DNA of 64,000 bases from a virus (Duplodnaviria; Caudoviricetes), in IMG/VR virus record IMGVR_UViG_2936984999_000001, positions 32,001 through 96,000 of that record. One strand, given 5' to 3'. A program made the position numbers and the translations under genes. The notes beneath the pieces were generated by a model. That model worked only from the letters and a program-made list of their open reading frames with translations. It was not told where the DNA came from and did not search any database. Shown in pieces: positions 13,581 to 57,423 of this stretch. Numbering within the stretch: position 1 is the stretch's first letter; each line of letters opens with the position of its first letter.

Positions 13581-13613
13581 TTAAAAAGACTAAAAGGAAA
13601 GCAGGTAAAACGT

Positions 13614-14234
13614 ATGGATATTTTACCATTATCCCTTGTTGGGACAACAAAAGAAAGTGATGTTCCTACTCCAGAAGAATATACCTACTGGGAGGATCGA
13701 AAAAATAGAACATTCTATATTGATTTTGAAATTGAAGAAGATTATGCATTAATTGAACTTGCAAAAATCATTATTCAGTTAAATATTGCCGAAAAAGATA
13801 TACCAACTTCCGAACTGCAGCCGATTCGCTTATTAATACACTCTTTCGGTGGAGATCTTGAACAGGCAAACTTCTTTGCAGATTTATGTATTGCTTCGCG
13901 CATTCCAATTATTACAGTTGCTATGGGAGTAGCTATGTCAGCAGGATTTATTATTTTTCTGTCCGGACATAAGAGATATGCATTTAAACATACTCAAATG
14001 ATGGTTCATTCTGGAAATGCATCATTTTCCGGTACTGCGGAACAAATTGATTCTGCACAGAAAAATTATAAGAAACAGATTGAGGATATGAAGTCTTATG
14101 TTCTTGAGCGTACATCTATTGATGAGAAAACTTTCAATAAAAATAGATCTAAAGACTGGTATCTCACTGAGGAAGAGCTGAAAAAATATAATGTTGTTGA
14201 TGAAATTATTTCTGATATTTCAGTTATATTTTAA
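13614..14234 (+). CDS. ClpP-like serine protease
   Basis: IHSFGG, AMSAG (catalytic Ser), MMVH (His), KDWYL motifs. Confidence 0.85.
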   Translation: MDILPLSLVGTTKESDVPTPEEYTYWEDRKNRTFYIDFEIEEDYALIELAKIIIQLNIAEKDIPTSELQPIRLLIHSFGGDLEQANFFADLCIASRIPIITVAMGVAMSAGFIIFLSGHKRYAFKHTQMMVHSGNASFSGTAEQIDSAQKNYKKQIEDMKSYVLERTSIDEKTFNKNRSKDWYLTEEELKKYNVVDEIISDISVIF

Positions 14235-17601: not shown

Positions 17602-17804
17602 ATAGAATTTTTCATTTTTTGATAAACCACAGGGCTGTAATGGTCCTGTGGATACTATAAAATCGTTATTTTATGTGATGTGATTTGCCGTGAGGCAATT
17701 ACTTTTTTCGCTCATTATTATAAAACTCTCTGAAGAGGTGATGGTTAGTGCTGTCATCTCACATAAGATAACGAAATATTTTGATAAAAGGAAGTGATGA
17801 AGAA

Positions 17805-18761
17805 ATGGCAGTTGAACGAAGTAAACCTATATTATTATATGACGCAAAAAAAGCTAAACAGGTTAATCCGGAAACATTAAGATTGTTTCAAAAATATCAA
17901 ATTGATATGTCAATTAGAGACCTATCAGAAAAGACAATTAGGGGTTATAATTCTGATTTAATGCAGTGGTTCATTTATATGTATAATAACCAATTTAATC
18001 TATCTGTTCTTGAAGCAAAAGAAGAAGATCTTGAAGAATATTATTTCTGGAGAAAACAGCAAGGTAATAATGTTAATCGTCAGAAACGTGTCATGTCTTC
18101 TATTTCCGCTTTCTATAAATTTCTTCGTAAGAAAAAACTCATTACAGAATCCCCAATGGAATTTATTGATAGACCAAAACAAGGACAACCTGTTGTTGTA
18201 CAAACTTATTTAAAAAAGGAAGAAGTGCAATTTATGAGAGAAAAACTTTCTGAATATGGTGATGTTCAGTTACAGGTTTATGCTTTTTTATCTCTCACTA
18301 CAATGGCCAGAGTTAATGCAATTGCTCATTTGAAATGGGATCAAATCAATATGGAAGAACGTATTTGCTCTGATGTGCTTGAAAAAGAAGGTAAAATTGT
18401 AGAGCTTTCATTTAGTGAAGAAACTCGCGATTATATGAATGAATTACGTAAATATAGAGAAGACAATAATATAGATGATTATGGTTGGGTGTTCAAAACG
18501 GCTTATACAAATGAGAAACAATGTGTAAGTAATGATACTCTAAATGAATGGTGTAAAAAAATTGGTAATATGATTGGGCATCCTACATTACATTGTCATG
18601 ATTGGAGACATAGCTATGCTAGTCTGCTTAAGGAAAATGGGGCAAGTTTAGAAGATGTTTCAGAAATGCTTAATCATGCAGGAACTGATGTTACTAAGAA
18701 ATATTACATAAAGGTAGATCATTCTAAGGTTAGAAAAATTAAGGATTCAATCAAAATTTAA
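17805..18761 (+). CDS. Tyrosine recombinase (XerC/D-like)
   Basis: SAM-like N-terminus, catalytic R (TMARVN), HDWRH, LNH and Tyr (KKYY); ATG at 17805 after RBS. Confidence 0.9.
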   Translation: MAVERSKPILLYDAKKAKQVNPETLRLFQKYQIDMSIRDLSEKTIRGYNSDLMQWFIYMYNNQFNLSVLEAKEEDLEEYYFWRKQQGNNVNRQKRVMSSISAFYKFLRKKKLITESPMEFIDRPKQGQPVVVQTYLKKEEVQFMREKLSEYGDVQLQVYAFLSLTTMARVNAIAHLKWDQINMEERICSDVLEKEGKIVELSFSEETRDYMNELRKYREDNNIDDYGWVFKTAYTNEKQCVSNDTLNEWCKKIGNMIGHPTLHCHDWRHSYASLLKENGASLEDVSEMLNHAGTDVTKKYYIKVDHSKVRKIKDSIKI

Positions 18762-19773: not shown

Positions 19774-19864
19774 GGCAGGTATAGCTTAATTGGTAAAGCG
19801 TCATATTCAAATTCTGGAAAACATACAAATGAAGACTCCAGGTTCGAGTCCTGGTACACTGCCC
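19774..19864 (+). ncRNA. tRNA-like RNA with enlarged (~24 nt) anticodon loop
   Basis: TAGCTTAATTGGTAAAGC D arm, CCAGG-TTCGAGT-CCTGG T arm, bulged acceptor GGCAG-GTA/TAC-A-CTGCC, TCAT/ATGA stem. Confidence 0.65.
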
Positions 19865-19900
19865 TACAACTCAATTTTTATTGAGTATAAAATTTTATTT

Positions 19901-19982
19901 GGATGGATAGCGAAGTGGTTAAACGCTCCTGACTGTAAATCAGGCGGCTCTGCCTTCGAAGGTTCGAATCCTTCTCCATCCA
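19901..19982 (+). tRNA. tRNA-Tyr(GTA)
   Basis: GGATGGA/TCCATCC acceptor, CCTGA-CTGTAAA-TCAGG anticodon arm, long variable arm, GGTTCGAATCC. Confidence 0.95.
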
Positions 19983-20080
19983 CTAAATAGGACTACTGTC
20001 CTATTCTATTATTCTTCTCTTTTCTTTGTATTTTTCATTTTCATGATTATTTCTCCAAGCTGGGCTTCGGTCCAGCGTCT

Positions 20081-20154
20081 TGGGATGTAGCTCAGTTTGG
20101 TAGAGCGCCTGATTTGGGTTCAGGAGGTCCAGGGTTCAAGTCCCTGTATTCCAA
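20081..20154 (+). tRNA. tRNA-Pro(TGG)
   Basis: TAGCTCAGTTTGGTAGAGC D arm, CCTGA-TTTGGGT-TCAGG anticodon arm, GGTTCAAGTCC. Confidence 0.9.
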
Positions 20155-34359: not shown

Positions 34360-34933
34360 ATGCCTACCTTTAGAGAGATGCAACAACTATATGCGAATAT
34401 TGGAACGGTTGGTCAACAGATTAAAAAACAATCTGATGATGCTATGGAAGCGACATGGGATAATTCTATCGCATCAAGGGTTTGTTACATCTATGATTAT
34501 TATCATGATGACTCTCCTACTTTGAATAGAAATATTACCTATGGACCATACACAACCAAAACTCGTATTGATGCAAAATTTATTGTCAAATCTTATAGCT
34601 CACTGGATAAAGACCAGATTGAGTATTATCTACAATTTAAACCAAGTCAGAAGACACAATTCGAACCAACTGATGAACTCTATTATTTTGAAACAGATTA
34701 CAGACGAAAATACGGATCAGACGATTTTGTAGGAATGTATTGTGATGTAGCTGATGATCAAGGTATTTATCATAGATGGCTTATCTGTACAAAAGAAATA
34801 GGCAATCAGTTTGTCAAATATAATATTCTTCCATGTGATTATTGGTTTCATTTTATTGTAAAGAAAAACGGTAAACGGTATAAACGGAAAATTTGGGGAG
34901 TGACGAGGACACAATCCTCGTACAACAGCGGAT
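34360..34933 (+). CDS. Head-closure/neck-like protein, exon 1
   Basis: Coding to ...TQSSYNSG + T; followed by a group I 5' splice site. Confidence 0.7.
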
Positions 34934-35284
34934 CTGTTACATGGTCCTTCCCATTAGAAATAAGGGGAAATCTATCCTTTGAATTGCTGGAAATTCCTAA
35001 AGACAATTAAACTACAACGCAAGTATGAAATATAACTAACCGTGAATGTGGCGAAAGCAGAAAAAATTAATTGTATGAGAACGAGGTTAAAACCCCTGTT
35101 CTCTTTTTTAATGGAAAATCAGCAGCGAAGCCTCGAATAGAGGAACGTTCAACGACTAAGCTACCTAAGTAGGTACTGTGGAGGACATCCGAAAGGATGA
35201 AGATATAGTCTGAACTTCTTTCGAAAGAAAGAGAAAACCGAAAGGTCTTATTTGAATTAACGAATCAAATAAGTAACGCATTTG
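34934..35284 (+). mobile_element. Group I intron (351 nt, no ORF)
   Basis: P1 GGAU/GUCC with U.G pair; P GAATTGCTGGAA, Q AATCAGCAGC, R GTTCAACGACTA, S AAGATATAGTCT; ends in G. Confidence 0.88.
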
Positions 35285-35295
35285 TATGGACTGAT
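35285..35295 (+). CDS. Micro-exon (~11 nt; 3' boundary uncertain by up to 4 nt)
   Basis: T+TATGGACTGAT restores the frame G-L-W-T-D joined to Y-Y-S-T of exon 3. Confidence 0.65.
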
Positions 35296-35612
35296 AAGTA
35301 ATTGTCCACTGCATTTGGAAACTGTGCAGTGAATTTCTTCTAATTGCTGGAAACTCTTTAGAAATTTGTAAACTACAACGCAAGCATGAAAAATGGCTAA
35401 TCGTGAATGTTAAAAATTACAAATATTAGATAATCAGCAGCCAAGACTCGAATAGAGTAAGGTTCATCGACTATTATGTAGGACAAGTGTCCGAAATGGA
35501 GAACACCTAAACCACAAGGCATGGTGAAGATATAGTCAGCACTTCATATGAGAATATGAGAAAAGCATTCGTGCTCTTTTGCAGCTTAACGAACTGTAAA
35601 AGTAACATAAGG
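35296..35612 (+). mobile_element. Group I intron (~317 nt, no ORF)
   Basis: P TAATTGCTGGAA, Q AATCAGCAGCC, R GTTCATCGACTA, S AAGATATAGTCAG; P10 AGTAAT/ATTACT; ends in G. Confidence 0.85.
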
Positions 35613-42115: not shown

Positions 42116-43990
42116 ATGCCTAATGAAGATTTTAGTATAAAAACTGGTATAGAGGTTGATGATAGTGGAGTCAGCCAATTAAAAAGTATTGCTGATGAGC
42201 TTGAAAAAACAGCGAAAGCTTTACAGAAAATTAATAACGTAAAATTTAATGGTGATATTTTCTCTGGGTTGACAAATGCAGGAAAAAATATTCAAAACGT
42301 CACTAAAGAGATTGATAAATTACAGAAGTCTGCCAATGGTGCTGGAAAACCATTAACCAACATTGGAAAAGGCGCAGAAAGTATTGTTTCAGGAAACTCA
42401 AAGCAGTTTACATTATTAGATTTAACTTCTATTGATGTAATTAAATCAAGTATGAGTGAAATTGCTGCTTCTGCTCAAAATCTTAAAGAAGCATTAGGAT
42501 CAGAAGTTACTTCCGGATTAATGACTCAGATTGATGCTATGTTGGCGAAAAAAGATGAGTTACAGAATCTTGCGAATATTTTAAAAAGCAATAAGGAAGA
42601 TTTAGGTAAAGCTGCGAAAGCAACTGGAAGTAGTAATAAAAAATCTGCAAATAACACATCATCTTCCACTTCTACTAAAACCCCAAAATATATAACTGAT
42701 CAGTCTTATGTTGGTGATTATAAGACACTTGCAGATAATGAAGCTTTTGTTCATACTCTTAGTACGTTTAGACATAATACAACAGAAGCTCAAGCCGCCA
42801 TAGAAGAACGAAATAAAGTTATGGCAAGAGTAAACGCAAAAACACCACAGAACACTTCTGAAATAAATGCAAAGCAGAGATTTGATGATATTGATAAGAC
42901 TATCACAGACAATCTTAGTAAATACGGAGATCGAATTCAGAGCGCTTATAATGCTTTCGACAAGATAAAGGCTGACAAAAGTGGCATCGCTGGAATTGAA
43001 GATGTATTTAAATCCAGTGAAGAACAGATAAACAAATGGGCTACTGCTGTCGCAAAAGGCAAAATGAGCATTGGTGAATTTGAGAAGAAAGTCAGTGGGC
43101 TAAGTGGATCTGTTGGCAGTATTGGTAAAATCATCGATCCTGCAAGTATTACAGATGCAAAAGGTGAATTGGAAAGTTATCTAAGAGAGCTTACCAATGT
43201 ACAGGATATTACCTTTAGTGGATTTACAGAAAAAAATGGAATTGTTTCACTCAAAGGTACATTTAAGGATAGTGCCGGTGAAGCGCAGACTTTAAGTGTT
43301 CAATTAAATACACTGAATGGACAGATTAAAAATCTTGGAACTTCTGTAAAACCTGTTGAAAGTGGACTTAGCAAATTCTTCTCAGGTTGGAAAGAAAAAA
43401 TGGTAAACCTTGCCCAATATTTGACTTCATTCCAGGCAATGAATCAAGTTTGGAATACGTTCAAACAAGGTTTAGAAATAGTTAAAGAGTTTGATACTGC
43501 TCTTACAGAAATGCGAAAAGTATCAGATGAGCCGATCAGTAAGCTAAAAGAATTCCAAAAGGAAAGCTTTGATATGGCAAAGAGCGTTGGTACTACTGCT
43601 CTGCAGATCCAGAATAGTACGGCCGATTTCATGCGTTTGGGACAGAGCATGGAAGAGGCAAAGCAGTCCAGTATGAATGCTAATATTTTAAAGAATGTTT
43701 CGGAATTCGATAATGTCGATGATGCAACTTCTGCACTAATTTCTATGCAAGCCGCATATAAAGACTTAACACAAACAGAATTAATTGACAAACTAGACAA
43801 TATTGGAAACCGGTATGCTGTAGCTACTGACGAGCTTGCAACTGGTTTACAGAAATCCGGTGCTACGCTCAGTTTAATGGGAAATAATATTGATGAATCC
43901 GTGGCGTTATTAACTGCAGCGAACAGTCAGATTCAGAATATTGATACCGTGGCAGCCGGGGAAAAAGTAATTTCTTTGCGTATCGCAGGT
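42116..43990 (+). CDS. Tail tape measure protein, exon 1
   Basis: TP901-type core DTALTEMRKVSDE, STADFMRLG, IDKLDNIGN, ends SLRIAG. Confidence 0.88.
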
Positions 43991-44342
43991 AGGTTATGCC
44001 TGAACATACTGGAAGGTATGGGTGAATATTTATATTTACTGGTTGATAACTATATCGGTGGAGGTCTGGGGACAGATAATACCGAGGTAAGACCTATATT
44101 TATATAGGAAACCGTAACGACTGCAGGATGTGTGTGGTAACACATGTGTTGAAGTTATCCGTCCTTTTTCTATAAGGATGTAATATACAGTCTGAACAGC
44201 CGAAAGGCTCTTTTACATTTCTTAGTGTAATCGTCACGCAATAATCCAAAATTTTATGAAACGTGAGACATAGGTAGAAATTCCTATGCGCCATATTTAT
44301 ATGGTTGGTAAGGTTTGTGATAAACCTGAAAGTAACAACTTG
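43991..44342 (+). mobile_element. Group I intron (352 nt, no ORF) in the tape measure gene
   Basis: P1 CAGGU/GCCUG; P TATCGGTG, Q AATACCGAG, R GTAACGACTG, S ATATACAGTCT; splice gives LRIAG|TEEAKKELEELGED. Confidence 0.88.
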
Positions 44343-44615
44343 ACAGAAGAAGCAAAGAAAGAACTTGAAGAGCTTGGTGAAGACACATCTGACTATGTTG
44401 TCGCAACTAAGGCAAAGAAGCAACAAATTATTAAGGATTATACTGCCGTAGCTTCTAATGGTGGAAAAGGTGTAGATATTCTTGATGCGAATGGTAACTA
44501 TAAAAACATGTTCGAGATCATGAATGAAATCGGTTCAATCTACGCAGAATTACAAGCCGAAGATAAAAAGTATGGCGAAAATCGAAGTATGGCACTTATC
44601 GAAGAGTTAGCCGGT
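44343..44615 (+). CDS. Tape measure protein, exon 2 (91 aa)
   Basis: GVDILDANGNYK...LIEELAG, in frame at both junctions. Confidence 0.88.
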
Positions 44616-45048
44616 TCTAACCACAGTTTTAGCCGGATTATGTAGAAATGCATAATTAGAACATATTTAATTGCAGGTAAAGCCTTATGCTTTGCACCAC
44701 AATAATGGAGAAATCACATTATGAAGGTTTAAAAACACAAAGATTGGCAGATCTGCAGCGAAGCACCCTAACGTATTCCGTAGATCGTACGGTACTTGAG
44801 CCGAGGGTGAACGTTCACAGACTATTCCCATATAGGGAATCAGAAATATCATTATTCGATGATTATAAAATAAAGGTGGAAATCCTGAATATCTGATTCA
44901 TTAGAAGTACGGCGTAATCGCAAATGACGTTGGTGAAAAGCCATTAAATGGAAACGGTATGCTTGCTGCTCTTTTGGGCGTGAGTAAGAAATAGTCGAAA
45001 CTGACATGAAGAATGTCAGATATTTTTTTGTATGGAGAAAAATTAAAA

Positions 45049-45234
45049 ATGGATAAAAAATTTGATAAAGAATATTCAACACAATGGATTAAAGAAGTTA
45101 AGTGGCTTTCATGCCATAATGTTCGCTTTACGTTCGTAAAAAGAGATACGAATGGAATAACAATTTATAAATATAAAAAAACACATCAATTATTTTCTGC
45201 ACTTGCAGAATTTTATTGTAGAAATGGAGATTGA
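45049..45234 (+). CDS. Small intron-encoded hypothetical protein
   Basis: GGAG RBS; MDKKFDKEYSTQ...FTFVK..YKYKKT; overlaps the HNH gene start. Confidence 0.6.
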   Translation: MDKKFDKEYSTQWIKEVKWLSCHNVRFTFVKRDTNGITIYKYKKTHQLFSALAEFYCRNGD

Positions 45235-46408
45235 CATAGTAGTGACAGAATTAAATAATGAAATTGAAAACAAAATATTAGAGTTATTTGATAAGGGATT
45301 GAACATAAAAAATATCAATAGTGAATTAGGACTTGCTGATGGTGTTGTAACAAAATGTCTAAATAAACACGGAATTACAGATACAGGTTGGAATAACCCA
45401 TCAAAAAGATATTATTCGAAATTAACGGATGAACAAAAAAGAGAAATCGAAGATATGTATAGGGATGGACGACTGAAAGAGATTTTAAATATACATCCTA
45501 CGTTAGAAAAGAGTTTTCTATATAATTTAATGTCAAGAAACAAAATAGAAAATGGCAAATATTTCTGGACCGAAGAAGATACAAACTATTTGAGAGATAA
45601 TATTGGTTTGGGATATGATAAACTTTTTAAATATTTTTCTGGAAGACATACTAAAAAAGCCATAGAAACTAAAGCTAAGAAAATGGGATTAGCAAAACCC
45701 CAATATTGGACTGAAGATGAATTGAATATAATGAGAAAATACTATTCAACTATTCCAAAAGAAGATATTAAAAAACTGCTTCCAAATAGAACATGGAATT
45801 CTATCGTATTAAAAGGTAGTAATTTAAAAATAAAATCTCACCATTACCTTAATGAAAAATATTCTGAAAAAGAAGAGAATTTTATAAAAGAAAATTTTGG
45901 TAAGATGACAGATGCTGAAATTGCAAAAGCTATAGGAAAAACAATCCATGGAGTATGTGATAAAAGGCGTTTACTTGGTTTATATTATTTTGATAAAAAT
46001 TATTCTAAATATAACGATATTTCAAAATTCTTTCGAGCGCATATCTATGATTGGAAAGAAAACTCTATGAAACAATGTAATTATCAATGTATATTTACAG
46101 GCTCTAAAGATTATGCAATTCACCATATAATAAGTTTCAACACTATTCTCTCAGAATTCTTTTCATATATTGAATCTAAAAATCTTTTAAAATCCAATAA
46201 TTTAAATGATTACTCAAAAGAAGAACTTGATAATTTAATAAAAATATTTAATACAGTACACGACAAATATCCACTTGGTATTTGTGTACGAAAAGATATA
46301 CATAATTTATTCCATAATATTTACGGAAGTGGTGGAAACACAAAAGAACAATGGGATATATTTTCAGAAAAATTTTCAAATCATGAATACGACAATTTAA
46401 TAGCGTAA
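45224..46408 (+). CDS. Intron-encoded HNH homing endonuclease with HTH and Myb-like repeats (start uncertain)
   Basis: WTEED/WTEDE/YSEKE repeats; CIFTG..AIHHI..GICVRKDIHNLFH. Confidence 0.82.
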   Translation: MEIDIVVTELNNEIENKILELFDKGLNIKNINSELGLADGVVTKCLNKHGITDTGWNNPSKRYYSKLTDEQKREIEDMYRDGRLKEILNIHPTLEKSFLYNLMSRNKIENGKYFWTEEDTNYLRDNIGLGYDKLFKYFSGRHTKKAIETKAKKMGLAKPQYWTEDELNIMRKYYSTIPKEDIKKLLPNRTWNSIVLKGSNLKIKSHHYLNEKYSEKEENFIKENFGKMTDAEIAKAIGKTIHGVCDKRRLLGLYYFDKNYSKYNDISKFFRAHIYDWKENSMKQCNYQCIFTGSKDYAIHHIISFNTILSEFFSYIESKNLLKSNNLNDYSKEELDNLIKIFNTVHDKYPLGICVRKDIHNLFHNIYGSGGNTKEQWDIFSEKFSNHEYDNLIA

Positions 46409-46465
46409 ATTTTTATCCATGCAAAAAATATAGAGATGTGTTGCGAACATCTTTTAATAAAATTG

Positions 46466-46789
46466 AAAAACAGATCCAACGTTGCTTCAGCTATACTTAA
46501 CAACTATGATTTATTAGATAAAGTAAAGTCTGATTCTGAGCAATCTTCTGGAGCGGCACAAGAGGAAAATGAGAAGTATCTTGAAAGTATTGAAGCCTCC
46601 ATAGCCCAACTTCAAACACAGCTCCAAGAGCTTGCAACAGTAACAATCAACAGTGATATGTTTAAAGGCGTAATAGATACAGCAACTGCCTTTCTTAACA
46701 TCGTAACTCAGATCCTGGATAAACTTCCACTGCTCTCAACAGCAATTGGAGGATTCGCAGGATTTAAACTTTCACAAGCAGGTCTGGGT
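46466..46789 (+). CDS. Tape measure protein, exon 3 (108 aa)
   Basis: KNRSNV..SSGAAQEENEKYLESIEA..QAGLG. Confidence 0.85.
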
Positions 46790-47209
46790 AAACAGCTTAA
46801 CATAAACCATAAAGCTAGTTTCAATTCAAAATTTTATCGTAGTTAAGATGCCCATTTGATATGCTGCTGTCATAATCGCGACAGTTAGTATAGAACTTGT
46901 TCAAGATGGTGATTCGACACCTATTGACAGACCTTTAGCCTTAGAGCTATAAAGCCGAATATCGGAGGAAGCCGTAATCCACATCACTGTGGTACCTTAG
47001 TTCTGAAAATGAATGAAAGGGATATATTGAAGATGGTAGTTCCGACACGTTAGCAAACACATATGTTTAAATTTACAAAAGTGGATGATAAAATTCACGA
47101 ATAAAACGCAATTATAACAGGAAGAAAGAAATAGAGAGCAGAAAGTTGCAGGTAACAACTCTCCACTCTCTTAAAAGACTAAAAGGAGATTACAAAAATA
47201 TGAACTAAA

Positions 47210-47383
47210 CTATTTATTATTTTGGGTGTCATCCTTATAGAATTCTCCAGACATGTCAAATCCTTTCAGAAATCCAAAATGGATGTGAAAGTTTTTCATG
47301 TTCTTAGATGGTATTCTGCGGATTAACGACCATAGGATTAATAATCCTACAAGAGTTAAAACGAATAGAAATACATCTTCCAT
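47210..47383 (-). CDS. 57-aa single-TM protein inside intron P6 (below the ORF-track cutoff)
   Basis: MEDVFLFVLTLVGLLILWSLIRRIPSKNMKNFHIHFGFLKGFDMSGEFYKDDTQNNK; AAGGAGGTGA RBS; promoter TTTACA-17-TACAAT near 47603-47631; terminator-like hairpin near 47133-47171. Confidence 0.7.
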   Translation of the reverse strand: MEDVFLFVLTLVGLLILWSLIRRIPSKNMKNFHIHFGFLKGFDMSGEFYKDDTQNNK

Positions 47384-47902
47384 ATCTCACCTCCTTCCTG
47401 TACGAAAGTATCAAGAAAGAGATTTGATGTTGGGGAGAATCCCATAGAAATGAATATAATATTTAGAGTACTTCATTTTAGACAATCTCATTTCTGGTAC
47501 AAATTGCGTACCATTAATTCAGTACTACATGACGACTGTCAGATATACTGTCGTGCAGCGGATCACAATGTAGACCTGTGACCACAAGTATATCTGACTT
47601 TGATTGTAGTATAATTGTCCATTTTTGTAAATCCAGAACATATGTGTTTTCATGTAAAAGTGTAGTTTTACAGTTAACGTGCGAGAGGCTGACAAGGCGT
47701 ATTATGTGTGACGTTACAACATATAGTACAATATACAGTCCAACCAGGGAAAGCCTGGGTAGCATGATGGGTCGAATAGTATAGATAGAACCGTGAGGTT
47801 ACTACTCTCCTACTACCTGAAATGCACTAACTGCACACATTCACCACGGCTTGCAAACGTGGTGTTTTTATTATTTTATTGAAAAAGAAGGTGAAGATTT
47901 TT

Positions 47903-48112
47903 ATGCATATAAAAATTTTTGATTGTGATATTTTCATTGATACTCACGAAATATCAATAAGTGATCATTCTGGTGAAAGCAGTTATAATTCATTTAATAA
48001 AAAACCTATTGACACATGTGTTATTAAAGAAATTATAGAAGAACACTTATTATTTAATACTTCCAAAAGATTTAATGATCTTATTACTCAAGGCGAAGGT
48101 TTAATTGCGTAA
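47903..48112 (+). CDS. Possible small intron-internal ORF
   Basis: AAGGTG RBS before ATG at 47903; 3' end overlaps the convergent gene. Confidence 0.35.
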   Translation: MHIKIFDCDIFIDTHEISISDHSGESSYNSFNKKPIDTCVIKEIIEEHLLFNTSKRFNDLITQGEGLIA

Positions 48113-48641
48113 TTTCAGAATTAACAGCTGGGTTAACTTTTGAACATTCGATTATACAATTTTTCATACTTTTAATAACTACGTCAAAATTTTCTTCATT
48201 TTTATCTAATTTAAATCCACATGTTAAATCTCCAATATATACAGAACGTGCAGATGATAAATTAGCCTTCCAAGTATTTCCATTTCGATTTACTATAGTA
48301 TAAAGGTGAGGTTCTTTATTTTCATCGAATCCGGCAATAAGAAAATGCATTTCCCCTATTGTGTCGGACTGATTTTCTTTTAGAAATTTATAACTTTCAT
48401 CACGAACTTTATTTACATCCCAATCGTAAAAGTTAGGAAATTCTTTCTGTAAATGGTTATACAAAGGTTTCATTTTATTTAAATCACCGGCAAATCCAAT
48501 TAATGTATAGTTATTTTTCTTCTTTATTTTTGAAATATTATCATAAACAACAGAATTATCTTCAGAATTAACCCATCTTGAGTCCGAACAAGCAGAAATT
48601 CTTTTTCTATCTTTAGATATAGCAGCAATAACTAAGCTCAT
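48084..48641 (-). CDS. Ntn-hydrolase / proteasome-beta-like protein (intron cargo)
   Basis: M-S start, LVIAA..ISACSDSR, SKI, LIGFAGD, FLIAGFD..PHLY resemble proteasome-beta/HslV-fold motifs; AGGAG RBS. Confidence 0.65.
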   Translation of the reverse strand: MSLVIAAISKDRKRISACSDSRWVNSEDNSVVYDNISKIKKKNNYTLIGFAGDLNKMKPLYNHLQKEFPNFYDWDVNKVRDESYKFLKENQSDTIGEMHFLIAGFDENKEPHLYTIVNRNGNTWKANLSSARSVYIGDLTCGFKLDKNEENFDVVIKSMKNCIIECSKVNPAVNSEITQLNLRLE

Positions 48642-48655
48642 ATTATGCACTCTCC

Positions 48656-49201
48656 TTATTTTCCAGGTTTCCAAGAATATCCGCAGTTAGCACACCTATT
48701 GACAGTTTTATTAGAACCAAGGAAACCTGTAATCAGACTGTATCCTCTTTGACCTGTAGTAATTTGTGTGCTACCACATTTAGGGCAACGAACGGTATTT
48801 TTCTCTTCTTCCTCTGCCCTCTGCTGTGCTAAATACTCGTCATATCTTTTCTGCGATTCCTCTTCGGCTTTAGCGTTTATAATATTTATTTGATTTGTGT
48901 ATTTAATGATGTCGTTCTTTTTGAGATCAATCATTGCTAAAAGAAAATCAGCACTATAATTACCAAAGTCAGTAATACGATCAAATTCTTTTAAATCATC
49001 CATATTAGAATCTTGCATTTCTGTTTTGCATATAGGACATTCGGCAGTCAACGCTTTATCTTCAAAAAGTAATCCTTTATAATCATTTATACTTTTATAA
49101 GTCACATTTGGTTCATAAAGTAATGAACTTGTATAAGCTTTTGCATCTGTTAGTCTATTTTTATTTTTTGCCATACATGTCTTACAGTAAAAAATTTTCA
49201 T
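48656..49201 (-). CDS. Zinc-ribbon protein (intron cargo)
   Basis: CKTC/CPIC and CPKCGS..GYSLITGFLGS..CANCG; GAGGGAG RBS before ATG at 49201. Confidence 0.75.
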   Translation of the reverse strand: MKIFYCKTCMAKNKNRLTDAKAYTSSLLYEPNVTYKSINDYKGLLFEDKALTAECPICKTEMQDSNMDDLKEFDRITDFGNYSADFLLAMIDLKKNDIIKYTNQINIINAKAEEESQKRYDEYLAQQRAEEEEKNTVRCPKCGSTQITTGQRGYSLITGFLGSNKTVNRCANCGYSWKPGK

Positions 49202-49241
49202 ATTATTAGTCTCCCTCAATTTTATATAGTTTTATAATGCA

Positions 49242-49270
49242 AGTATACTACTATATATAAATAAAAACAA
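49242..49270 (-). promoter_or_regulatory. Antisense sigmaA-like promoter for the cargo operon, abutting the intron 3' splice site
   Basis: Minus strand TTGTTT-17 nt-TATACT. Confidence 0.55.
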
Positions 49271-49272
49271 TG

Positions 49273-52200
49273 ATCTTTAACTACGATAAAGAAAATGGGA
49301 CATTTAATAATTCTAAGAATTTGTCTGATGTTAAACAGAGCATTATAGACTTTTTTACAAAAAAACAAGATATAAAAAAGAACTATGTATTAACTGACAA
49401 AGATAACGATTTCTTTAAAAGATTTAGAGAGACATTTTCTAGTGATCAAATATCTGGTAGTAGCGAAAAAGATGTTGCATATGCAAAACAATTAGTAGAT
49501 CAATATGCAGACCAGAAACAGGGAATTTATGATCTTATAGAAGCAAAAGGGCTTTTGGGTGTTACGGAAGCCAATTTAGCAGATGCACAATCCACTACTA
49601 TACAAGGAATGACTAAGTTCCAGTCTGTTGCAAAATCAGCAGTTACAGCTGTTAAATCTTTTGTCGGTACTCTCGGTAATATGGCAATTGCTATGGCTGC
49701 ATCATGGGCTATTGGTAAAGCAATCGAAGGTATTGATTATCTTATTCACTACGATGAAAATATCATCAAAGCTGGACAGGAAGCAAAGGATTCCATTGAC
49801 AGTACATTTAAAAGTTTCGAAGAAGGTAAGCAGTCTATCATGGATCTTGGCTCTTCATTTGGCAATCAGACAGAGCAGATAAAAAATACCGGTGATGCAA
49901 TCGATCAAGTTGCCGAAAAATATGTAGATCTTCGTAAGGGAGTAAATCAGAATACAAACGAGAATGTATCATTATCTACAGACGAGTATCAGCAATATAT
50001 TGATCTCAGTAGTAAGCTTGCTTCTCAGTTTCCTGGTCTGGTAGCAGGTTATGATAGTCAGGGAAATGCTGTATTAAACCTTGCTTCCAATGCAGATAAG
50101 GCTGCTGATAGTATTCGTAACTTATATGAGGCACAAGTTTCTTCTGCAAATGTTGATATGGGGAAAAATCTACAAGCAACATATGATGGTGTTGTTACAC
50201 AGACAAGTCAATATGCGGAAGATATTCAGAAAAAACGTGATGAACTAGCTCAACTAGATATTGATATTTCTGAGAACAAACGTAGTATTTTAACATATGG
50301 AAGTAACAATTTTGAAGTTCAGAATTTGTATGGCGATAAAGAAAATGTTATTACTGATGTTCTAAAAGAGAACGGATTATACAAAGAGAATACTGGTGAT
50401 GACGGAAGCATCTGGAATTTCTATGCTGAAGGTCTTGCTGACAAGTCAGAACAAGAAATAGATAGGATGAACGAACAGATTACAGCTGGTATGGAATCCT
50501 ATTATTTAACATTGGAATCTCAGAGAAGTCAACTTCAGAGCGAAATTAATTCCTATGACTTAATGATTGAAGATCAATGGCGTAGCATGGCTCAATCACT
50601 TGGAAATTATCTTCAGACATCAAAATCATTTAATGAGCTTGATGATAGTCTTCAGAGTGCATTTCTGGCTAATATTTCAAATCTTGATTTAACTGCATTA
50701 AATGATCCTGATGGTGAATATAAAGGACAGGTACTTGATTTTCTGTATGGTGAATTTCTTGGGCCAATGTCTCAGTTTAGTACGGATGTACAAGAAAGTC
50801 TTGCAAAAGCACTACAAATTGATCCTTCTAAATTAACTATTGATGAATACAGGTCGCAAGTTGATGAGGCATTTAAAGATGCTTTTGGAAATGACACAGA
50901 GGAAAAGAAAGAACTTCAGGAGCGATTCAAAAACGCTTATGGAATTGATTCTTCTATTGAAGATATGGAGGATAATGCATCTCGTCTCAAAGAAGCATAT
51001 GCAGATTTTCCAAATGCCAGTGATTTTATTGACCAGATGCAGACAGGCGATCTGTCAATTGCTGCACAGTTAATTGATAATGGTTCAGTTGATATTAAGA
51101 AAGGCACAGATGGATTAGTTTCTGCCATTGAAAGATATAAGAAAACGGTAGCAGAATCCACAGATGGTCCTATTCTCTCATCAATTCTTGGCGATTCTGA
51201 TAATGAAATCTCATCTTCTATTGATTCTTTACAGTCAGATATTTCTTCTTTATCAGATACTCTTATAAAGCTTAAAACAGGCGAGTTTAAAGATTCAGAT
51301 CTCACTGACATTATTCAACAGTTTCCACAACTAGCTTCTGGTACAGACGATTTACAGAAATCTATTTCAAACCTCAAAGTATCTAAAGTAACAGATAGTA
51401 TAAAAAAAATAGATGATGCGATGGTTGGTGCTTCTAAAGAAGAGATGGAATATGCTAAAGCTCTTAAAGGAAGCATTCTGAAAGAAGCTGATTTGTCTGA
51501 TATTGATGCTGCTACAGCGAAGCAGGAAATAGAAAAACTGTTCAAAAATGCTTATAGCTCTGCGCCACAGACAGTTGCAGAAAATATGGCAAAAGGATTT
51601 ATCAATTCTTATTCAAGCTATATGACATCTGACACAGGCGCCCAAGCAATGCTTAAAGCGGTCGAACAGAATATTGGAAATATCACTTCTACTGGATTCG
51701 ATTGGGGAAAAGAAATTAAGAATTTTCTTCCAACTACAGCAGATTTTATTAATAATGAAACAATCCAATCTCAGCTCACAGATTATCAGGATAAATATCA
51801 GTCACTCTATCAAGCTCAAAAAGATCTAAAGAACGGTCTTATGACTGGTTCTACAAGAAAAACATTCCTGGATAAATTCCCAGATCTTGCAAAATATGCA
51901 GGAAACACTGAAACACTCTCTTCTGCTATTGATGATCTGATGGATTCTATGGACAGTGATGTAACTAACCAGTTTACAGATGCTATTAAAGCTCTTCAGG
52001 ATGCCGGACAGTATGCAGATGCAAGTGCATTACAATCTTATGTTGAAGCTGTTTTAGATGGTGCCCATGATATCGAGGGTGCTTATCAAAAAATCGCAGG
52101 TCTTAAAATCCCTACACCTCAGTATGCAGAACTTAAAGAGGCTCTTGAATCTTCAAACGAGGGTGATCTTTACAACGAACTTCTCTCTCAGTATAAAACC

Positions 52201-55200
52201 GCAAAAGAGGCATGGGAAAAAGGTGAAGTTGGTACAGATGACTTTAAGTCTTTTGCTTCTATTATTTCTCCTACAGGTGTATCTGATGCAGTAAACTTTG
52301 GTGAGAATCAGGCAATGTTTGAAAGATACTTCCAGGATACATCTACTGGTGTTGAAAATTTCCTAGAAGATCTACAGAAGCTTGACCTTGCTTCTAATGA
52401 AAGTGGTCATTGGACCAGTACATTAGGAAATAACCTTGATGAAATGCGAGACGCTGCACAGAGACTTAATATGGGCTTTGAACCATTTATGATGATGTTT
52501 GGTCGTCTCGAAGATTATGGTGCTACTACTGACTTCTTCACTACGGAAGAGGATGGGCAACAGCATTTGTCTGATCTCTATCAGCAGATTGCAGAAAAGA
52601 AACAAAAACTTGCAGAAATTAAAGCAGATCCGGATTTAGCTGGAGATCAGTCTGCTATTGATTCTCTCAATAAAGATTTAGATGAACTTTATGCGAGAGT
52701 AGAAAATACAAAAACTGGAATTGAAGAGCTTCCGGATAAAGCAACTTATTATGAAGCAAAGAATCTCGAACAGGCTAAATCAGTTATCACTCAGATGCAG
52801 GATGAAATTAATCAGGCAGCTGCAGAAGGAAATGATGAATTAGTCAAAATTCTTGAAAAAACTCGTGATCAATATTTAAAAGAAAACGGATATATTCTTA
52901 AAGAACAGCCACAAGGTCAAACTCAGCAAGGGACTATTGAAAATCCGTTAGCAAGAGAATTTACAAATCCAACTAAATTTGGTGATTATGAGACAGTCAT
53001 CAAGAAGATTCAGAATGCGACAGATGAACAAACATCTTCTCTTGAGGAAAATCTTAAAGTATTAAGCCAATATTCTGAATCTCAGCTCAGTGGAATAAAT
53101 TTATCCGATGGACAGTATGATGCCGGTTTTGAGGATGCTGAACAAGCACTTGACAACCTTTCTAGCACATTTGGTCTTACAAAAGATCAAGCGGTACAGT
53201 TAGCAGCTGTTCTTTCTGATATGGGGCTGATCAAAGCAACTCCTAAAGTTGACTTAACTACAGTTCAGGATCAGATTGATAATGCAAAAGATGAGTTACA
53301 GGATAGTAATATTACTGTTGATTTAGATTTTGATATTTCTACTTCTAGTAAAGAAGAACTTCAGAAAAAGAGTCAAGAAATCCAGGAAGAGTTAAATAAT
53401 AATACATCTCTTTCTACTTCTGAGAAAACAACTCTGCAAGGAGTAAAAGATTCTGTTGATAACCAGGTTGTTACGCTTACAGTACAGGAAAAAGTTGAAA
53501 AAGATGGTGATGTAGACGAGCTTCTTGCAATGGATGATCAAACACTTGCTGCGACACTTGATTTAGATGTAAATAATGAAAGTCAGCTGAAAACTGCTAG
53601 GGACGATTTACAATATATTAAGGATAATCAAGATGCACAAGTTGATATGACCGTTAAATTGGATGAATCTCAGTTTAAACAGTTGTTAGGCGATAAAGAT
53701 CAGGCTTCTATAAATCTTACTGCTAATGATAAAGAAGCAAAAGAAAAGATAAATGAAACCAAGGAATATGCCAATAAATCAAAGGGTATTATAAAAATTG
53801 ATGGAAATAGTTATTCAGCTATTTCTAAGGCAGACTCTGCTGTAAAATTTATCAATGGTATGACTGGAACTATTAAAATTGATGCGAATATCGATTCTAT
53901 GACAAGTAAAATTAGTTCCGAATTGGCAAAACCTCGTACTATTGACATTTCTGCAAATGTTCATACAAATGTCAGAGGAGCTGTTAAAGGTGCTACAGCA
54001 AGCGCTTCTGGTTCTATGATTCGTGTAGCTCATACTGATGGTACGGCTTATAATGTTCTTAACTACTCTCATGCTTATGCAAATGGAAATGTTGCGTTAA
54101 ATGGTGATGAAAATGCTCTAGTCAATGAGTTAGGAAATGAAAGTATCGTTAGGAATGGTAAATGGATGCTTATTCCAGGTGGTGCTCATTTTGAAAATCT
54201 GAAGAAGGGTGACATTATCTTCAATGCACAGCAGACATCCGAGCTTATCAATTCAGGACATGTTACATCTGGAGGTGGACATGCTAGAGCTTATGCAAAT
54301 GGTACTGTTGGTGCTTATGCAGGAGGTAATTCTGGTGTTTATTTAAACTGGGATAAAAATCGTACTCAAGTTGGCAATCAGTCAACCTCATCTTCCTCCA
54401 ATTCCACAACTACCGATAAAAATACAACTTCTGTTAAGAAAAATACAGACACCGTAAATGACAATACCGAAAAGGTAAAGAAATCTACTAAGGTATATGA
54501 CTGGGTAGAAATCCGTATTAAGCATTGGTCTGATCAGGTTCAAAAAATCGCTGATAAAATCACTGATTATATTAAGAAGTCACTTAAAACATCTTTGCTC
54601 AAACAGCAAATTCGTAAGATGAACTATGAGATTGGGTCTAATCAGAAAGGTGCAAAAACCTATATGAAAAAGGCTAACTCTATAGCGAACGAGTACACTT
54701 ATTATAATAGTGATGGCGAAGAAATTAAAACCAATGTATCAAAGAAATATCAGAAGCTTGTACAATCTGGTGCTTATCGCATAGAGGATATGGACACTTC
54801 AACAGACGAGGGTAAGGCTCTGGCAGAGGCTATCGATCAGTATAAGACATATTACGACAAGGCACAGGATTGCAAACAGGCTGTTGTTGATCTGAAAAAA
54901 GAGCAAATGGAATTGTTTGAGCAATGGGCTAATATGCCAACTGAAACAGCAGAGCAGAAATTGGAACGTTTACAAAACGGATTTAATGGATTGAATGCAA
55001 CTCAGTCAAGGTTATCTGCTGTTCAGACAGGTGGATCAACACAAAAAGCTATAGCAGACGCTGCTACTGCAAGTTACGAATCAGCACAGGTAGTTACAGA
55101 AAAAGCACAATCAAATCTTGACACAGCAACTGCGAAAGCAGATAAGGCAACTACAGCTGTAAATAGAAAGAAAAAAGCACTTCTTAAATCAAAAGGTCTT

Positions 55201-57423
55201 ACGAATGAGCAGAAAAAAGCTATTAAATCCGGAAAGACTATTGATACCAGTAAGATTACTAACAAGACTACGAAGAAACGTGCCGAAGAGTATAATTCTG
55301 CAGTTAAAAATAAAAAGAAAGCAGATTCTAAAAAGAAAACGGCTCAGACTAAATTTAACACTGCAAATAAGAATTCTTCATCTCTTAAGACAGATGCAGA
55401 AAAAGCAATCGCCGGATATCAGGAAGGAAACGAACTTTCCTATATGGATTCCTTAACTGATCAGAATGTGACACAGACAAAGCAAGCTGCAGATATTAAC
55501 AACAAGGCTTGGGAGGAAACTAAGAAAAATCTTAACGCACAGGAGAAAGCCAAGAAACAAGCAGACGATAAGGTTAGTAAAAAAGCTAAAGCTATTAAGA
55601 AAAAGTTTGGTAGTAAGCTGAGTGATAATCAGAAAAAGAAATTAGCAGCAGGTAAAGAAATAAATGTCGATAAGATAAAAGACAAGTCTCTTAAAAAGGC
55701 TCTTACAGCATATAATAAATATGTTACTACTGCAGCCGAAACAGAACAGAAATTAAATATTGTCACAGATGCAGAATCAACAGCGGCAGCTAATGCAGCG
55801 GAATCACAGACAGAAGCAGCTAAAGCCACAGTCGAAGCTATTCAAAGTAAATTTGATAATGCGAAGACGTATTATGAAGGATTGTTAGGATATCAGGAAA
55901 AGTATAATGAAATGGAAGAAGCAAACATTGATTTATACAATGCTCATGGAAATTATGAGCGTTCTTCTGATTATGAGATCAAGATTTCAAATACTGAAAG
56001 TCTGAGAAATATCGCACAGGATAAAGTTGATGAACTTGAGAAAAGACTCCAAGAAGGTGTTGACAATGGCACAATTGTAGAAGGATCTCAGGAATGGATT
56101 AATATGAAATCCGAGATTATAGAAGCAAAAAAAGCTGTAACCGATTACGACACAAGTATTGAAAATCTGAAACAGCAACAAATTGGTGTTTATTATGAAG
56201 AACAGTTTGATCGTGCAATAGAGAAAATTGATCAGTTCAAGGACCGTATTGATATACTAAATGAAATCATCTCTGATGATATGAAAGTTGATAAGAATAC
56301 TGGATTACTTACAGAATTGGGAGCTACTTCTGTAATGTTGAACAGAAAACAGTTTTCTGCAAATCAGAAAGAAATACAAAAGCTTCTTGAAAAAGAAAAT
56401 GATGTGAAAAAACGATACGCTAATGGCGAAGATATGTCTTCTGAATTTGGCGAAAAGACTTATGATGAATATATAAAAGACATTCAGTCTAAATATAATT
56501 CTTTAATTTCATCAAATAGTTCTCTTCAAAATGATATGCTCTCTCTTGTCAAAAATCAGGCTCAAGCAGAACTTGATGCTCTTAATAAAGTAATATCTAA
56601 GCGTAAGGAAGCCCTTTCCGCAAAGAAAGACTATTACGATTACGATAAAACTTTAAAGGATAAGACTAAAGACATTCAGATCCTTGAACGTCAAGCGGCA
56701 GCTCTCCAGGGTTCAACAAACGCTGAAGATAAAGCACGTTTGGCAAAGATCCAGGAACAATTATCAGATGCAAGAGAAGATCTTTCTGATACTATGACAG
56801 ACCATGCTTTCAGTATGCAAAGTGATGCGCTTGATAAATTATCCTCAGATATGAGTGATGATTTTGACAAATGGTCTAACGACATAAACTCTAACGTAGA
56901 GAAAATGAGTAAAGCTATTAATGAAGCAGTTTCAAATTCTGCTCTTAGTAATGCGCAGGTTCTCAATAATCTTTCTACTATTCTGAAAAATGTTGGATTA
57001 ACAGATGAGCAGGTTAGCTCTACATTATCAGGGTTTACCGGTTATGCTTCCGGAACTGATTATGTGCCTAAGTCTGGAATGTACCGTGTAAACGAAAATG
57101 GTATGGAATCCGTACTGTCAAGAAAATACGGTACTCTCACATTCTTAAATCAGGGCGATAAAGTATTTACAGCAGATTTCACAAAGAGACTTATTGATAA
57201 TGCAGGTATTGCCACACAGAGTAGTCAACCACAATTTGGCGAGATGTATAAGGAACTTATGAATGCGATTAACAACACAAATAATCAATCTTATGAGCAT
57301 AGTACAGTTTACAATATTATTGTAAATGAAGCTACTGATGCAAACGCAGTAGGTGATATTGTCGTTAAGAAGATTAATGCATACGAAAAGAAGCGTGTAA
57401 GAGATTTTAAGAGTCTCAGATAA
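49273..57423 (+). CDS. Tape measure protein, exon 4 (spliced product ~3540 aa)
   Basis: Long helical/coiled-coil ORF with AYANG, ALVNELGNE and GYASGT motifs typical of TMP C-termini; no RBS before the apparent ATG at 49270. Confidence 0.88.
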   Translation: MFNYDKENGTFNNSKNLSDVKQSIIDFFTKKQDIKKNYVLTDKDNDFFKRFRETFSSDQISGSSEKDVAYAKQLVDQYADQKQGIYDLIEAKGLLGVTEANLADAQSTTIQGMTKFQSVAKSAVTAVKSFVGTLGNMAIAMAASWAIGKAIEGIDYLIHYDENIIKAGQEAKDSIDSTFKSFEEGKQSIMDLGSSFGNQTEQIKNTGDAIDQVAEKYVDLRKGVNQNTNENVSLSTDEYQQYIDLSSKLASQFPGLVAGYDSQGNAVLNLASNADKAADSIRNLYEAQVSSANVDMGKNLQATYDGVVTQTSQYAEDIQKKRDELAQLDIDISENKRSILTYGSNNFEVQNLYGDKENVITDVLKENGLYKENTGDDGSIWNFYAEGLADKSEQEIDRMNEQITAGMESYYLTLESQRSQLQSEINSYDLMIEDQWRSMAQSLGNYLQTSKSFNELDDSLQSAFLANISNLDLTALNDPDGEYKGQVLDFLYGEFLGPMSQFSTDVQESLAKALQIDPSKLTIDEYRSQVDEAFKDAFGNDTEEKKELQERFKNAYGIDSSIEDMEDNASRLKEAYADFPNASDFIDQMQTGDLSIAAQLIDNGSVDIKKGTDGLVSAIERYKKTVAESTDGPILSSILGDSDNEISSSIDSLQSDISSLSDTLIKLKTGEFKDSDLTDIIQQFPQLASGTDDLQKSISNLKVSKVTDSIKKIDDAMVGASKEEMEYAKALKGSILKEADLSDIDAATAKQEIEKLFKNAYSSAPQTVAENMAKGFINSYSSYMTSDTGAQAMLKAVEQNIGNITSTGFDWGKEIKNFLPTTADFINNETIQSQLTDYQDKYQSLYQAQKDLKNGLMTGSTRKTFLDKFPDLAKYAGNTETLSSAIDDLMDSMDSDVTNQFTDAIKALQDAGQYADASALQSYVEAVLDGAHDIEGAYQKIAGLKIPTPQYAELKEALESSNEGDLYNELLSQYKTAKEAWEKGEVGTDDFKSFASIISPTGVSDAVNFGENQAMFERYFQDTSTGVENFLEDLQKLDLASNESGHWTSTLGNNLDEMRDAAQRLNMGFEPFMMMFGRLEDYGATTDFFTTEEDGQQHLSDLYQQIAEKKQKLAEIKADPDLAGDQSAIDSLNKDLDELYARVENTKTGIEELPDKATYYEAKNLEQAKSVITQMQDEINQAAAEGNDELVKILEKTRDQYLKENGYILKEQPQGQTQQGTIENPLAREFTNPTKFGDYETVIKKIQNATDEQTSSLEENLKVLSQYSESQLSGINLSDGQYDAGFEDAEQALDNLSSTFGLTKDQAVQLAAVLSDMGLIKATPKVDLTTVQDQIDNAKDELQDSNITVDLDFDISTSSKEELQKKSQEIQEELNNNTSLSTSEKTTLQGVKDSVDNQVVTLTVQEKVEKDGDVDELLAMDDQTLAATLDLDVNNESQLKTARDDLQYIKDNQDAQVDMTVKLDESQFKQLLGDKDQASINLTANDKEAKEKINETKEYANKSKGIIKIDGNSYSAISKADSAVKFINGMTGTIKIDANIDSMTSKISSELAKPRTIDISANVHTNVRGAVKGATASASGSMIRVAHTDGTAYNVLNYSHAYANGNVALNGDENALVNELGNESIVRNGKWMLIPGGAHFENLKKGDIIFNAQQTSELINSGHVTSGGGHARAYANGTVGAYAGGNSGVYLNWDKNRTQVGNQSTSSSSNSTTTDKNTTSVKKNTDTVNDNTEKVKKSTKVYDWVEIRIKHWSDQVQKIADKITDYIKKSLKTSLLKQQIRKMNYEIGSNQKGAKTYMKKANSIANEYTYYNSDGEEIKTNVSKKYQKLVQSGAYRIEDMDTSTDEGKALAEAIDQYKTYYDKAQDCKQAVVDLKKEQMELFEQWANMPTETAEQKLERLQNGFNGLNATQSRLSAVQTGGSTQKAIADAATASYESAQVVTEKAQSNLDTATAKADKATTAVNRKKKALLKSKGLTNEQKKAIKSGKTIDTSKITNKTTKKRAEEYNSAVKNKKKADSKKKTAQTKFNTANKNSSSLKTDAEKAIAGYQEGNELSYMDSLTDQNVTQTKQAADINNKAWEETKKNLNAQEKAKKQADDKVSKKAKAIKKKFGSKLSDNQKKKLAAGKEINVDKIKDKSLKKALTAYNKYVTTAAETEQKLNIVTDAESTAAANAAESQTEAAKATVEAIQSKFDNAKTYYEGLLGYQEKYNEMEEANIDLYNAHGNYERSSDYEIKISNTESLRNIAQDKVDELEKRLQEGVDNGTIVEGSQEWINMKSEIIEAKKAVTDYDTSIENLKQQQIGVYYEEQFDRAIEKIDQFKDRIDILNEIISDDMKVDKNTGLLTELGATSVMLNRKQFSANQKEIQKLLEKENDVKKRYANGEDMSSEFGEKTYDEYIKDIQSKYNSLISSNSSLQNDMLSLVKNQAQAELDALNKVISKRKEALSAKKDYYDYDKTLKDKTKDIQILERQAAALQGSTNAEDKARLAKIQEQLSDAREDLSDTMTDHAFSMQSDALDKLSSDMSDDFDKWSNDINSNVEKMSKAINEAVSNSALSNAQVLNNLSTILKNVGLTDEQVSSTLSGFTGYASGTDYVPKSGMYRVNENGMESVLSRKYGTLTFLNQGDKVFTADFTKRLIDNAGIATQSSQPQFGEMYKELMNAINNTNNQSYEHSTVYNIIVNEATDANAVGDIVVKKINAYEKKRVRDFKSLR

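Follow-up and report, generated by a model that had tools for sequence, protein, structure and literature searches.

Does the interruption at positions 46790-49272 of a phage tape-measure gene cut that gene in two, or is it an intron that is taken out of the mRNA? The question arises in a window of 64,000 nucleotides (nt), part of a 122.8-kb IMG/VR phage record (IMGVR_UViG_2936984999_000001, estimated completeness 55%), across which the tape-measure gene is split into several open reading frames (ORFs). We consider the interruption to be a group I intron spliced in cis, with a probability of about 0.75, and comparison with related phages indicates that it serves as a bay for variable accessory genes. 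The splicing itself, its being in cis, its action on late mRNA and the expression of the cargo in lysogens, with its timing, are what we infer. The comparison covered 13 related contigs (loci numbered with L), among which L029, L035 and L036 make up a distant clade; the relatives are gut phages whose genomes measure ~215 kb and whose tail genes are SPbeta-like (YomU/V/W families). GenBank phages gave no match to the region by megablast or blastn, and the split-gene family is common in human-gut assemblies, with single protein clusters present on 85-126 contigs.

Proposed splice junction and ribozyme core

The tape-measure pieces in the window and the exons proposed to flank the interruption are the following:
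42116-44107, plus strand, tape-measure piece with a PhageMin_Tail match (Pfam)
44286-44645, tape-measure piece (ORF list)
46436-46846, tape-measure ORF comprising exon 3 and a tail (ORF list)
46436-46789, plus strand, tape-measure exon 3, 118 codons, C-terminal ...SQAGLG
49273-57423, plus strand, tape-measure 3' exon, 2716 codons (called as ORF 49270-57423, 2717 amino acids, aa)

In phiCD211 and SPbeta (YomI) the tape-measure protein is continuous; it is collinear with these pieces and unbroken at the point equivalent to 46789|49273. Exon 3 aligns to residues 75-188 of the phiCD211 protein, and the alignment stops exactly at LG, the proposed splice point. With the 5' splice site at 46789|46790, removal of 46790-49272 (2483 nt) gives the in-frame junction AGLG|IFNYDK. 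The elements placed at the junction are:
46785-46854, plus strand, P1 hairpin, UGGGU (46785-46789) with GCCCA (46850-46854), 5 base pairs (bp), loop holding the guide
46833-46849, plus strand, internal guide (P10 strand), complementary to the first 18 nt of the 3' exon
49272-49290, plus strand, terminal intron G (G49272) and P10 target, i.e. the first 18 nt of the 3' exon

P1 consists of the splice-site wobble U46789.G46850 and four Watson-Crick pairs. The guide lies directly 5' of the P1 3' strand and forms P10 from 49273-49275/46847-46849, a bulged U49276 and 49277-49290/46833-46846, altogether 17 bp including a 14-bp perfect run. An earlier interpretation made from the letters alone, further called the sequence-only reading, had described this P1, a P10 of 14 plus 3 bp and the same in-frame junction, all of which are read directly from the sequence. 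Among 20,000 random 30-mers of the window (true-site draws excluded) the longest perfect complement to the 120-nt guide region was 11, and in an unbiased in-frame scan for P1 combined with P10 the true solution scored 23 versus 10 for the next best. The arrangement of P1, P10 and in-frame junction is far beyond chance. In cis-splicing introns P10 is normally far shorter than 17 bp.

Several features of the 3' exon concern its status as a gene. It has no Shine-Dalgarno sequence, compared with 28 of the 36 long ORFs of the window which do have one; two of the seven other ORFs devoid of a ribosome-binding site are downstream exons of introns verified with Rfam. Directly before the exon, five loci have the triplet ATG, four have TTG, and L029 and L035 have ACG, while the G next to the splice site (G49272) is invariant in all relatives. 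Across the relatives, exon nucleotides 1-18 contain two variable sites, both of which keep P10 through G.U pairs, in comparison to 14 and 17 in the next two 18-nt blocks. On the other side, indels found in relatives have shifted the frame of the 18-codon tail by which the upstream ORF runs past the 5' splice site. Judged from these sequences, the 2717-aa ORF is not a separate gene, and would be read as part of the tape-measure frame.

A complete group I core, P1 to P9 in canonical order, was mapped by hand within 46790-47760 (~970 nt). The sequence-only reading had spread it over 2.5 kb, the remainder of which turned out to be cargo. The core was identified by manual mapping against the RF00028 consensus as displayed on the phage's own verified introns, together with covariation. 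Its elements, all on the plus strand, are listed below:
46861-71/46880-91, P2, peripheral hairpin
46908-11/46918-21, P2.1, peripheral hairpin
46936-39/46946-49, P2.2, peripheral hairpin
46952-56/47696-700, P3, forming a pseudoknot with P7, order as in the RF00028 consensus
GAAUA, J3/4
46962-67/47040-45, P4
46971-75/47033-37, P5
46979-83/46988-92, P5a
47046-54/47673-81, P6, with a 618-nt insertion (helix search)
47055-68/47636-49 and 47071-89/47614-32, P6 closing stems, 33 bp in total
47106-13/47502-09, further stem in the P6 insertion
47654-71, hairpin P6b
CGAGA, J6/7
47687-91/47736-40, P7 (GGCUG/CAGUC)
ACAA, J7/3
47701-09/47719-27, P8
AAUAUA, J8/7
47744-48/47754-58, P9
47759-47880, P9 extension, then hairpin 47842-48/47858-64 and a T-run (predicted fold)

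The consensus P and Q elements are located in 46952-47045, and the catalytic 3' half in 47682-47758, where the consensus R and S elements are present. The 33-bp stem (47055-47089/47614-47649) closes off ~520 nt containing a gene cassette for a 57-aa protein.

Some other pairings were considered and abandoned during the mapping. An R-like motif at 47530-47545 and a 12-bp hairpin at 47538-47598, taken as P7 and P7.1, both fall inside the P6 insertion. The pairing of CUUGU (46896-46900) with ACAAG (47692-47696) as P3 has no counterpart in L035, whereas the canonical P3 has one, and GCCUU in the P2.2 loop, also tried as P3, is not conserved in L008.

Two further complementarities were noticed in the core. 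The P2.1 loop AUUCGAC (46912-46918) is perfectly complementary to GUCGAAU (47771-47777) in the P9 extension, and in L035 a loop complementarity persists over 5 bp in other letters, UCGUA pairing with UACGA. These sequences may make a tertiary kissing contact of the P13 type. The 5' strand of P5, AAGCCGU (46969-46975), is complementary to ACGGCUU (47846-47852) in the hairpin before the T-run, which could be an alternative pairing linking ribozyme folding to that hairpin.

Conservation in related phages and rival explanations

Nine loci share the first ~1083 nt of the region at 96-99% identity, L008 at 77%. Within the clade of the window 99.6% of cells are paired (tool alignment, a count made with the later rejected CUUGU/ACAAG version of P3), and the P6 stems alone are 98.8-100% paired. 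Nine pairs are changed on both sides, as compared with 1.3 in shuffles (0/500), and slid controls gave none. The double changes comprise four in P2 and one in P2.1 (L008), two in P8 and two in P9. Changes from G.U to A-U occur in P4, P6 and P7 (P7 in L008), and because of the G.U pairs the sense strand can be taken as the structured one.

In the distant clade the 3' exon protein is only 31-32% identical, yet the junction is the same, the equivalent of 46789|49273 in L036 being 7181|16374. Every helix is found at the same place with a different sequence: each of P3, P4 and P6 differs between clades by compensatory change, covariation is also seen in P5a, and L035 has hairpins in the P2 region at the same places but of different sequences. 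J3/4, J4/5, J6/7, P7 and J7/3 are identical between clades. The cores of L035 (6848-7300) and L036 (7177-7640) are compact, with a 44-nt P6 at the equivalent place, so the P6 insertion is specific to the clade of the window. P1 is changed there to AGGGU/GCCCU, a compensatory replacement of U-A by A-U. The P10 of L036 keeps the geometry of 3 pairs, bulge and 14 pairs, with 16 of 17 positions paired and with two double compensatory changes (C-G to U-A and U-A to A-U), whereas within the clade of the window (L010, L012) the P10 changes are wobble-compatible only. Judged from these two double changes between clades and the wobble-only changes within one, the long P10 is under selection. Thus in the alignment of related phages, named by the sequence-only reading as a check, core and P10 covary while the cargo changes.

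From -185 to +1083 most relatives share 94-99% identity (L008: 85% and 77%), versus 55-70% in the flanks, and the last 185 nt of exon 3 lie inside this near-identical mosaic block. Such a pattern is in keeping with a ribozyme that spread horizontally not long ago, the 5' exon being co-converted with it. As a speculation, the ORF of HNH type in the neighbouring tape-measure interruption may be a candidate mover of this endonuclease-less intron.

The proposed course of splicing is as follows. In the late sense transcript guanosine would attack after U46789, with the 5' exon held on the guide through P1. The 17-bp P10 would then capture the 3' exon over a distance of 2.5 kb in the window (in relatives up to 9 kb), G49272 would dock, and the exons would be ligated into one tape-measure frame of ~3,600 residues. 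In the window P6 is enlarged by a long closing stem, from which a small membrane protein gene, probably transcribed on its own, is looped out, and the mostly antisense cargo would be read from a sigma-A-type promoter abutting the 3' splice site.

There are also points which speak against a cis-spliced intron. RF00028 of Rfam found no match at E-values up to 10, either in the whole region or in each half; the Infernal group I scan by which the sequence-only reading was to be checked detected nothing, and the group I membership rests on the manual mapping. The miss is probably due to the 618-nt P6 insertion. P3 contains one mismatch in the window, and the P9 of the distant clade is short (3 bp). 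An allele devoid of the intron turned up neither in close relatives (none among the 120 + 120 protein relatives listed) nor in DNA collections. Finally, we know of no bacterial or phage precedent for cis-splicing over 2.5-9 kb across opposing transcription units and a sense-strand hairpin with a T-run.

The ligated exon junction has no exact copy in viral or metagenome contig collections. A 151-nt Logan contig from a wastewater 'RNA-Seq' run (the RNA label is a guess, coverage being limited to 49287-49581) matches 49287-49426 exactly; the 11 nt before this match, TCTAAATCTTT, fit neither the genome nor the predicted junction, are unexplained and were not used as evidence.

The length of P10, far above what cis introns normally need, would also be expected if the 5' RNA ended after the core and P10 joined it to a separately transcribed 3' exon. 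Such trans-splicing, a companion idea of the sequence-only reading together with an internal terminator, would agree with the hairpin and T-run that follow the core on the sense strand in most of the clade of the window, and with the mostly opposite direction of cargo transcription. However, L008 lacks the T-run, and at this place no terminator exists in the distant clade; the next element there in L036 is a sense-strand ORF equipped with a ribosome-binding site. Moreover, the gap between antisense promoter and splice site is just 2-4 nt, and the sequence before the 3' exon shows no conserved promoter on the sense strand. The idea has lost support on these grounds, and we regard it as improbable. 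A gene that was simply split, with a decayed or repurposed ribozyme and two tape-measure proteins made and never ligated, would agree with the ~2,700-aa proteins which gene callers annotate as starting here in hundreds of contigs, with the split at the same site in every close relative and with the failure to find the spliced sequence. It would leave unaccounted for a start codon that is not conserved (ACG in L029 and L035) and lacks a ribosome-binding site, the covariation of P1 and P10, catalytic junctions that do not vary between clades with a flanking protein of ~31% identity, and the nucleotide-level constraint on the first 18 nt of the exon; we assign to it a low probability.

The 17-bp complementarity might also be of DNA origin, that is, represent terminal inverted repeats of a cargo-bearing, transposon-like insertion. 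Inverted repeats at 46833-46849 and 49273-49290 do flank the region, with AAAAT on both outer sides in the window, but this AAAAT flank is not conserved in relatives, and the changes within the repeats keep RNA pairing through G.U, which would be mismatches in DNA. In addition, one arm lies within conserved coding sequence, the repeat abuts the P1 strand exactly, and family scans revealed no transposase in the window. This explanation seems to us very improbable indeed. A doubtful elaboration, which we consider rather unlikely, would make the intron a transcription-dependent gate: the long P10 would join exons that are distant or even located on separate RNAs (bimolecular trans-splicing), while antisense transcription and the sense hairpin would block the mRNA unless a processive phage polymerase reads through, in this way coupling virion assembly to the lysis decision. 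Cis-splicing of a late transcript is in our view the most probable course.

With regard to lifestyle, L036 lies within a 722-kb contig of assembly GCA_047008745.1, which is taken to be a bacterial chromosome with an integrated prophage. In the window, ORF 17781-18761 contains a tyrosine recombinase (Phage_integrase at 18213-18716, 66 bits) and adjoins a tRNA cluster at 19779-20154. Because of the L036 contig and the tyrosine recombinase encoded in the record of the window, a temperate lifestyle is plausible.

Cargo genes and other interruptions in the window

The genes and signals carried by the proposed intron are:
47133-47485, minus strand, P6 cassette with promoter-like site, leader, ORF and terminator
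47485-47456, minus strand, promoter-like site (scan)
47383-47210, minus strand, 57-aa membrane-type ORF
47171-47133, minus strand, 17-bp terminator (scan)
47879-48112, plus strand, 77-aa small ORF of unknown function, which may not be a real gene
48084-48674, minus strand, Ntn-hydrolase/proteasome-subunit-like protein, 196 aa (PF00227, E 8.3e-6, above the curated cut-off)
48656-49219, minus strand, double zinc-ribbon protein, 187 aa, likely start ATG 49201
49269-49241, minus strand, antisense promoter TTGTTT-17-TATACT, 2 nt from the 3' splice site

The claim that P6 houses a complete promoter, leader, 57-aa gene and terminator holds, as the closing stem encloses the cassette and the scan recovered both promoter and terminator. 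The L008 counterpart of the 57-aa ORF has equal length, ~40% residue identity and 11 codon differences which are synonymous only; since L008 keeps it at the same length and 40% identity, we treat it as a real gene. It has no family match in Pfam, PHROGs or PADLOC. The same is true of the 77-aa ORF, which has relatives of 65-73 aa in L002, L003 and L010.

Also the antisense zinc-ribbon/Ntn-hydrolase-like pair proposed from the sequence alone was recovered by family matches. The 187-aa protein has weak zinc-ribbon Pfam matches and matches phrog_2546 (E 1e-7); its paralogous family occurs in all nine of the compared loci, with 1-4 full-length copies per locus and short fragments. The proteasome-like family is present in seven of these nine. 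The likely start of the 196-aa protein is ATG 48641 (codon 11), which has a ribosome-binding site. From this ATG the protein begins MSLVIAAIS, and its Pfam match is weak; by analogy to Thr of HslV-type Ntn hydrolases, Ser2 could be the N-terminal nucleophile. The promoter assigned to this pair had a more mixed outcome: in the window it is below the scan threshold, and the generic promoter scan did not perform above chance, but it is conserved in both clades. Relatives have TTGAAA, TTGAAT or TTGATT-17-TATACT, L029 has TTGTTT-17-TATAAT, and all these sites are 2-4 nt from the splice site. It was accepted because of this conservation in relatives and not because of the scan.

The exons are separated by 2483 nt in the window, by 3.2-7.6 kb elsewhere in its clade, by 8044 nt in L035 and by 9192 nt in L036. 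Over this range of 2.5-9.2 kb among the 13 related contigs the cargo differs in every locus compared, as suspected when the locus was first described as a variable accessory one. The repertoire includes zinc-ribbon paralogues, proteasome-like, DUF2513, aspartyl-protease-like and helix-turn-helix (HTH) proteins, and small ORFs on both strands. No homing endonuclease was detected with Pfam, PHROGs and PADLOC on the four ORFs of the window intron or with Pfam on nine cargo ORFs of the relatives, in accordance with the initial claim, and family scans of the window intron revealed no IS200/605 transposase or TnpB. The L035 cargo does contain an IS200/605 unit (7340-9160) with TnpA (Y1_Tnp), TnpB (OrfB_IS605) and the end hairpins CCCCCACTTCTATAAGTGGGGG and CTCCGACTTCTATAAGTCGGAG; as the otherwise identical L036 is devoid of it, it is judged to have entered the cargo bay secondarily. 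The idea of a terminator shared by both clades was rejected, the L035 hairpin being an IS605 end and L036 having none.

Elsewhere in the window RF00028 matches three introns, at 34926-35233, 35273-35560 and 10750-10994. The first two are in tandem, 39 nt apart by Rfam coordinates, and the third separates two ORFs of a polymerase-like gene, 8671-10767 and 11027-11725. Ribosome-binding sites are absent from the ORFs that follow. Matches of ORF 8671-10767 were to phrog_8308 (unknown function) and to a PMBT24 gene whose annotation is RNA-dependent RNA polymerase; a YonO-like polymerase is possible.

Two other interruptions of the tape-measure gene were inspected. The second one, 44646-46435, has by eye textbook P, Q, R and S elements (AAUUGCAGGUAAA, AGAUCUGCAGCG, GUUCACAGACUA and AAGAAAUAGUCG) followed by a P9 hairpin, and RF00028 found nothing in it even at E-values up to 10. 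It carries the following ORF after the core:
45203-46408, HNH-type ORF, 401 aa

The first interruption, 43990-44310 (~300 nt, no ORF), contains ACGACUG, AAUAUACAGUC and a GAAA-capped P9-like hairpin, as in group I cores, and was not detected by RF00028 either. A more distant gut phage, L001 (MT835469.1 115000-135000, minus strand 10416-13905), has its tape-measure gene split in the same way, around 3.5 kb of cargo. GGAUGCGGUAUAG and AGUAAUCCGCAGG, both P/Q-like, stand there directly after the upstream exon; in the in-frame scan no P1/P10 rose above noise and no long P10 was prominent, and L001 likewise gave no RF00028 match.

Comparison with known systems

Phage group I introns are usually regarded as small and selfish, with one homing endonuclease gene as their maximum load. 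In the case described here accessory genes appear to be kept and exchanged safely within an essential structural gene thanks to the ribozyme. If the splicing is true, these introns of 2.5-9.2 kb would, to our knowledge, exceed all other group I introns of bacteria and phages in length, with a natural extended guide helix solving the choice of a long-range 3' splice site. They would further constitute a new type of variable locus in gut phages, at present called a truncated tape-measure protein and a 2,700-residue 'hypothetical protein'.

The introns of T4 (~0.6-1 kb) have inserts that are single sense-oriented homing endonuclease genes; in td and nrdB the ORF is looped out of P6, and in nrdD/sunY it is placed after the core. 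Our element resembles them in having foreign coding sequence in the P6 loop and/or after P9, a distant 3' splice site and its own expression signals. It differs in the lack of an endonuclease, the presence of 2 to >10 unrelated, mostly antisense genes, the length of 2.5-9.2 kb, the variable content and the 17-bp P10. The tape-measure gene of phiCD211 (NC_029048) contains an annotated misc_RNA, Intron_gpI, so that there too a group I intron interrupts a related tape-measure gene of a large Firmicutes siphovirus; that intron, however, occupies a different site upstream of ours, is 266 nt long, has no ORF and is detected by Rfam.

In IStrons, such as CdISt1 of Clostridioides difficile, a group I ribozyme is fused to IS200/605 genes, and the element is mobilised by its own transposase/TnpB. 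They share with the window intron the 5' ribozyme and the non-endonuclease cargo between core and 3' splice site, but the latter lacks a transposase, and IS605 is present only in L035, as a secondary arrival. Host genes are enclosed by group I introns in organelles, namely by the hexacoral ND5-717 intron and the fungal mt-LSU rps3 intron. Like ours these carry non-endonuclease genes and some are many kilobases long; their genes are nevertheless fixed, essential and in sense orientation, in contrast to a variable accessory set with bacterial promoters in a virus. A parallel may also be drawn to phage morons, which are accessory genes with their own promoter and terminator, located within a late structural operon and varying among related phages. 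Morons lie between genes, while the locus presented here is inside a coding sequence, where it would be tolerated only through its removal from the mRNA by the ribozyme.

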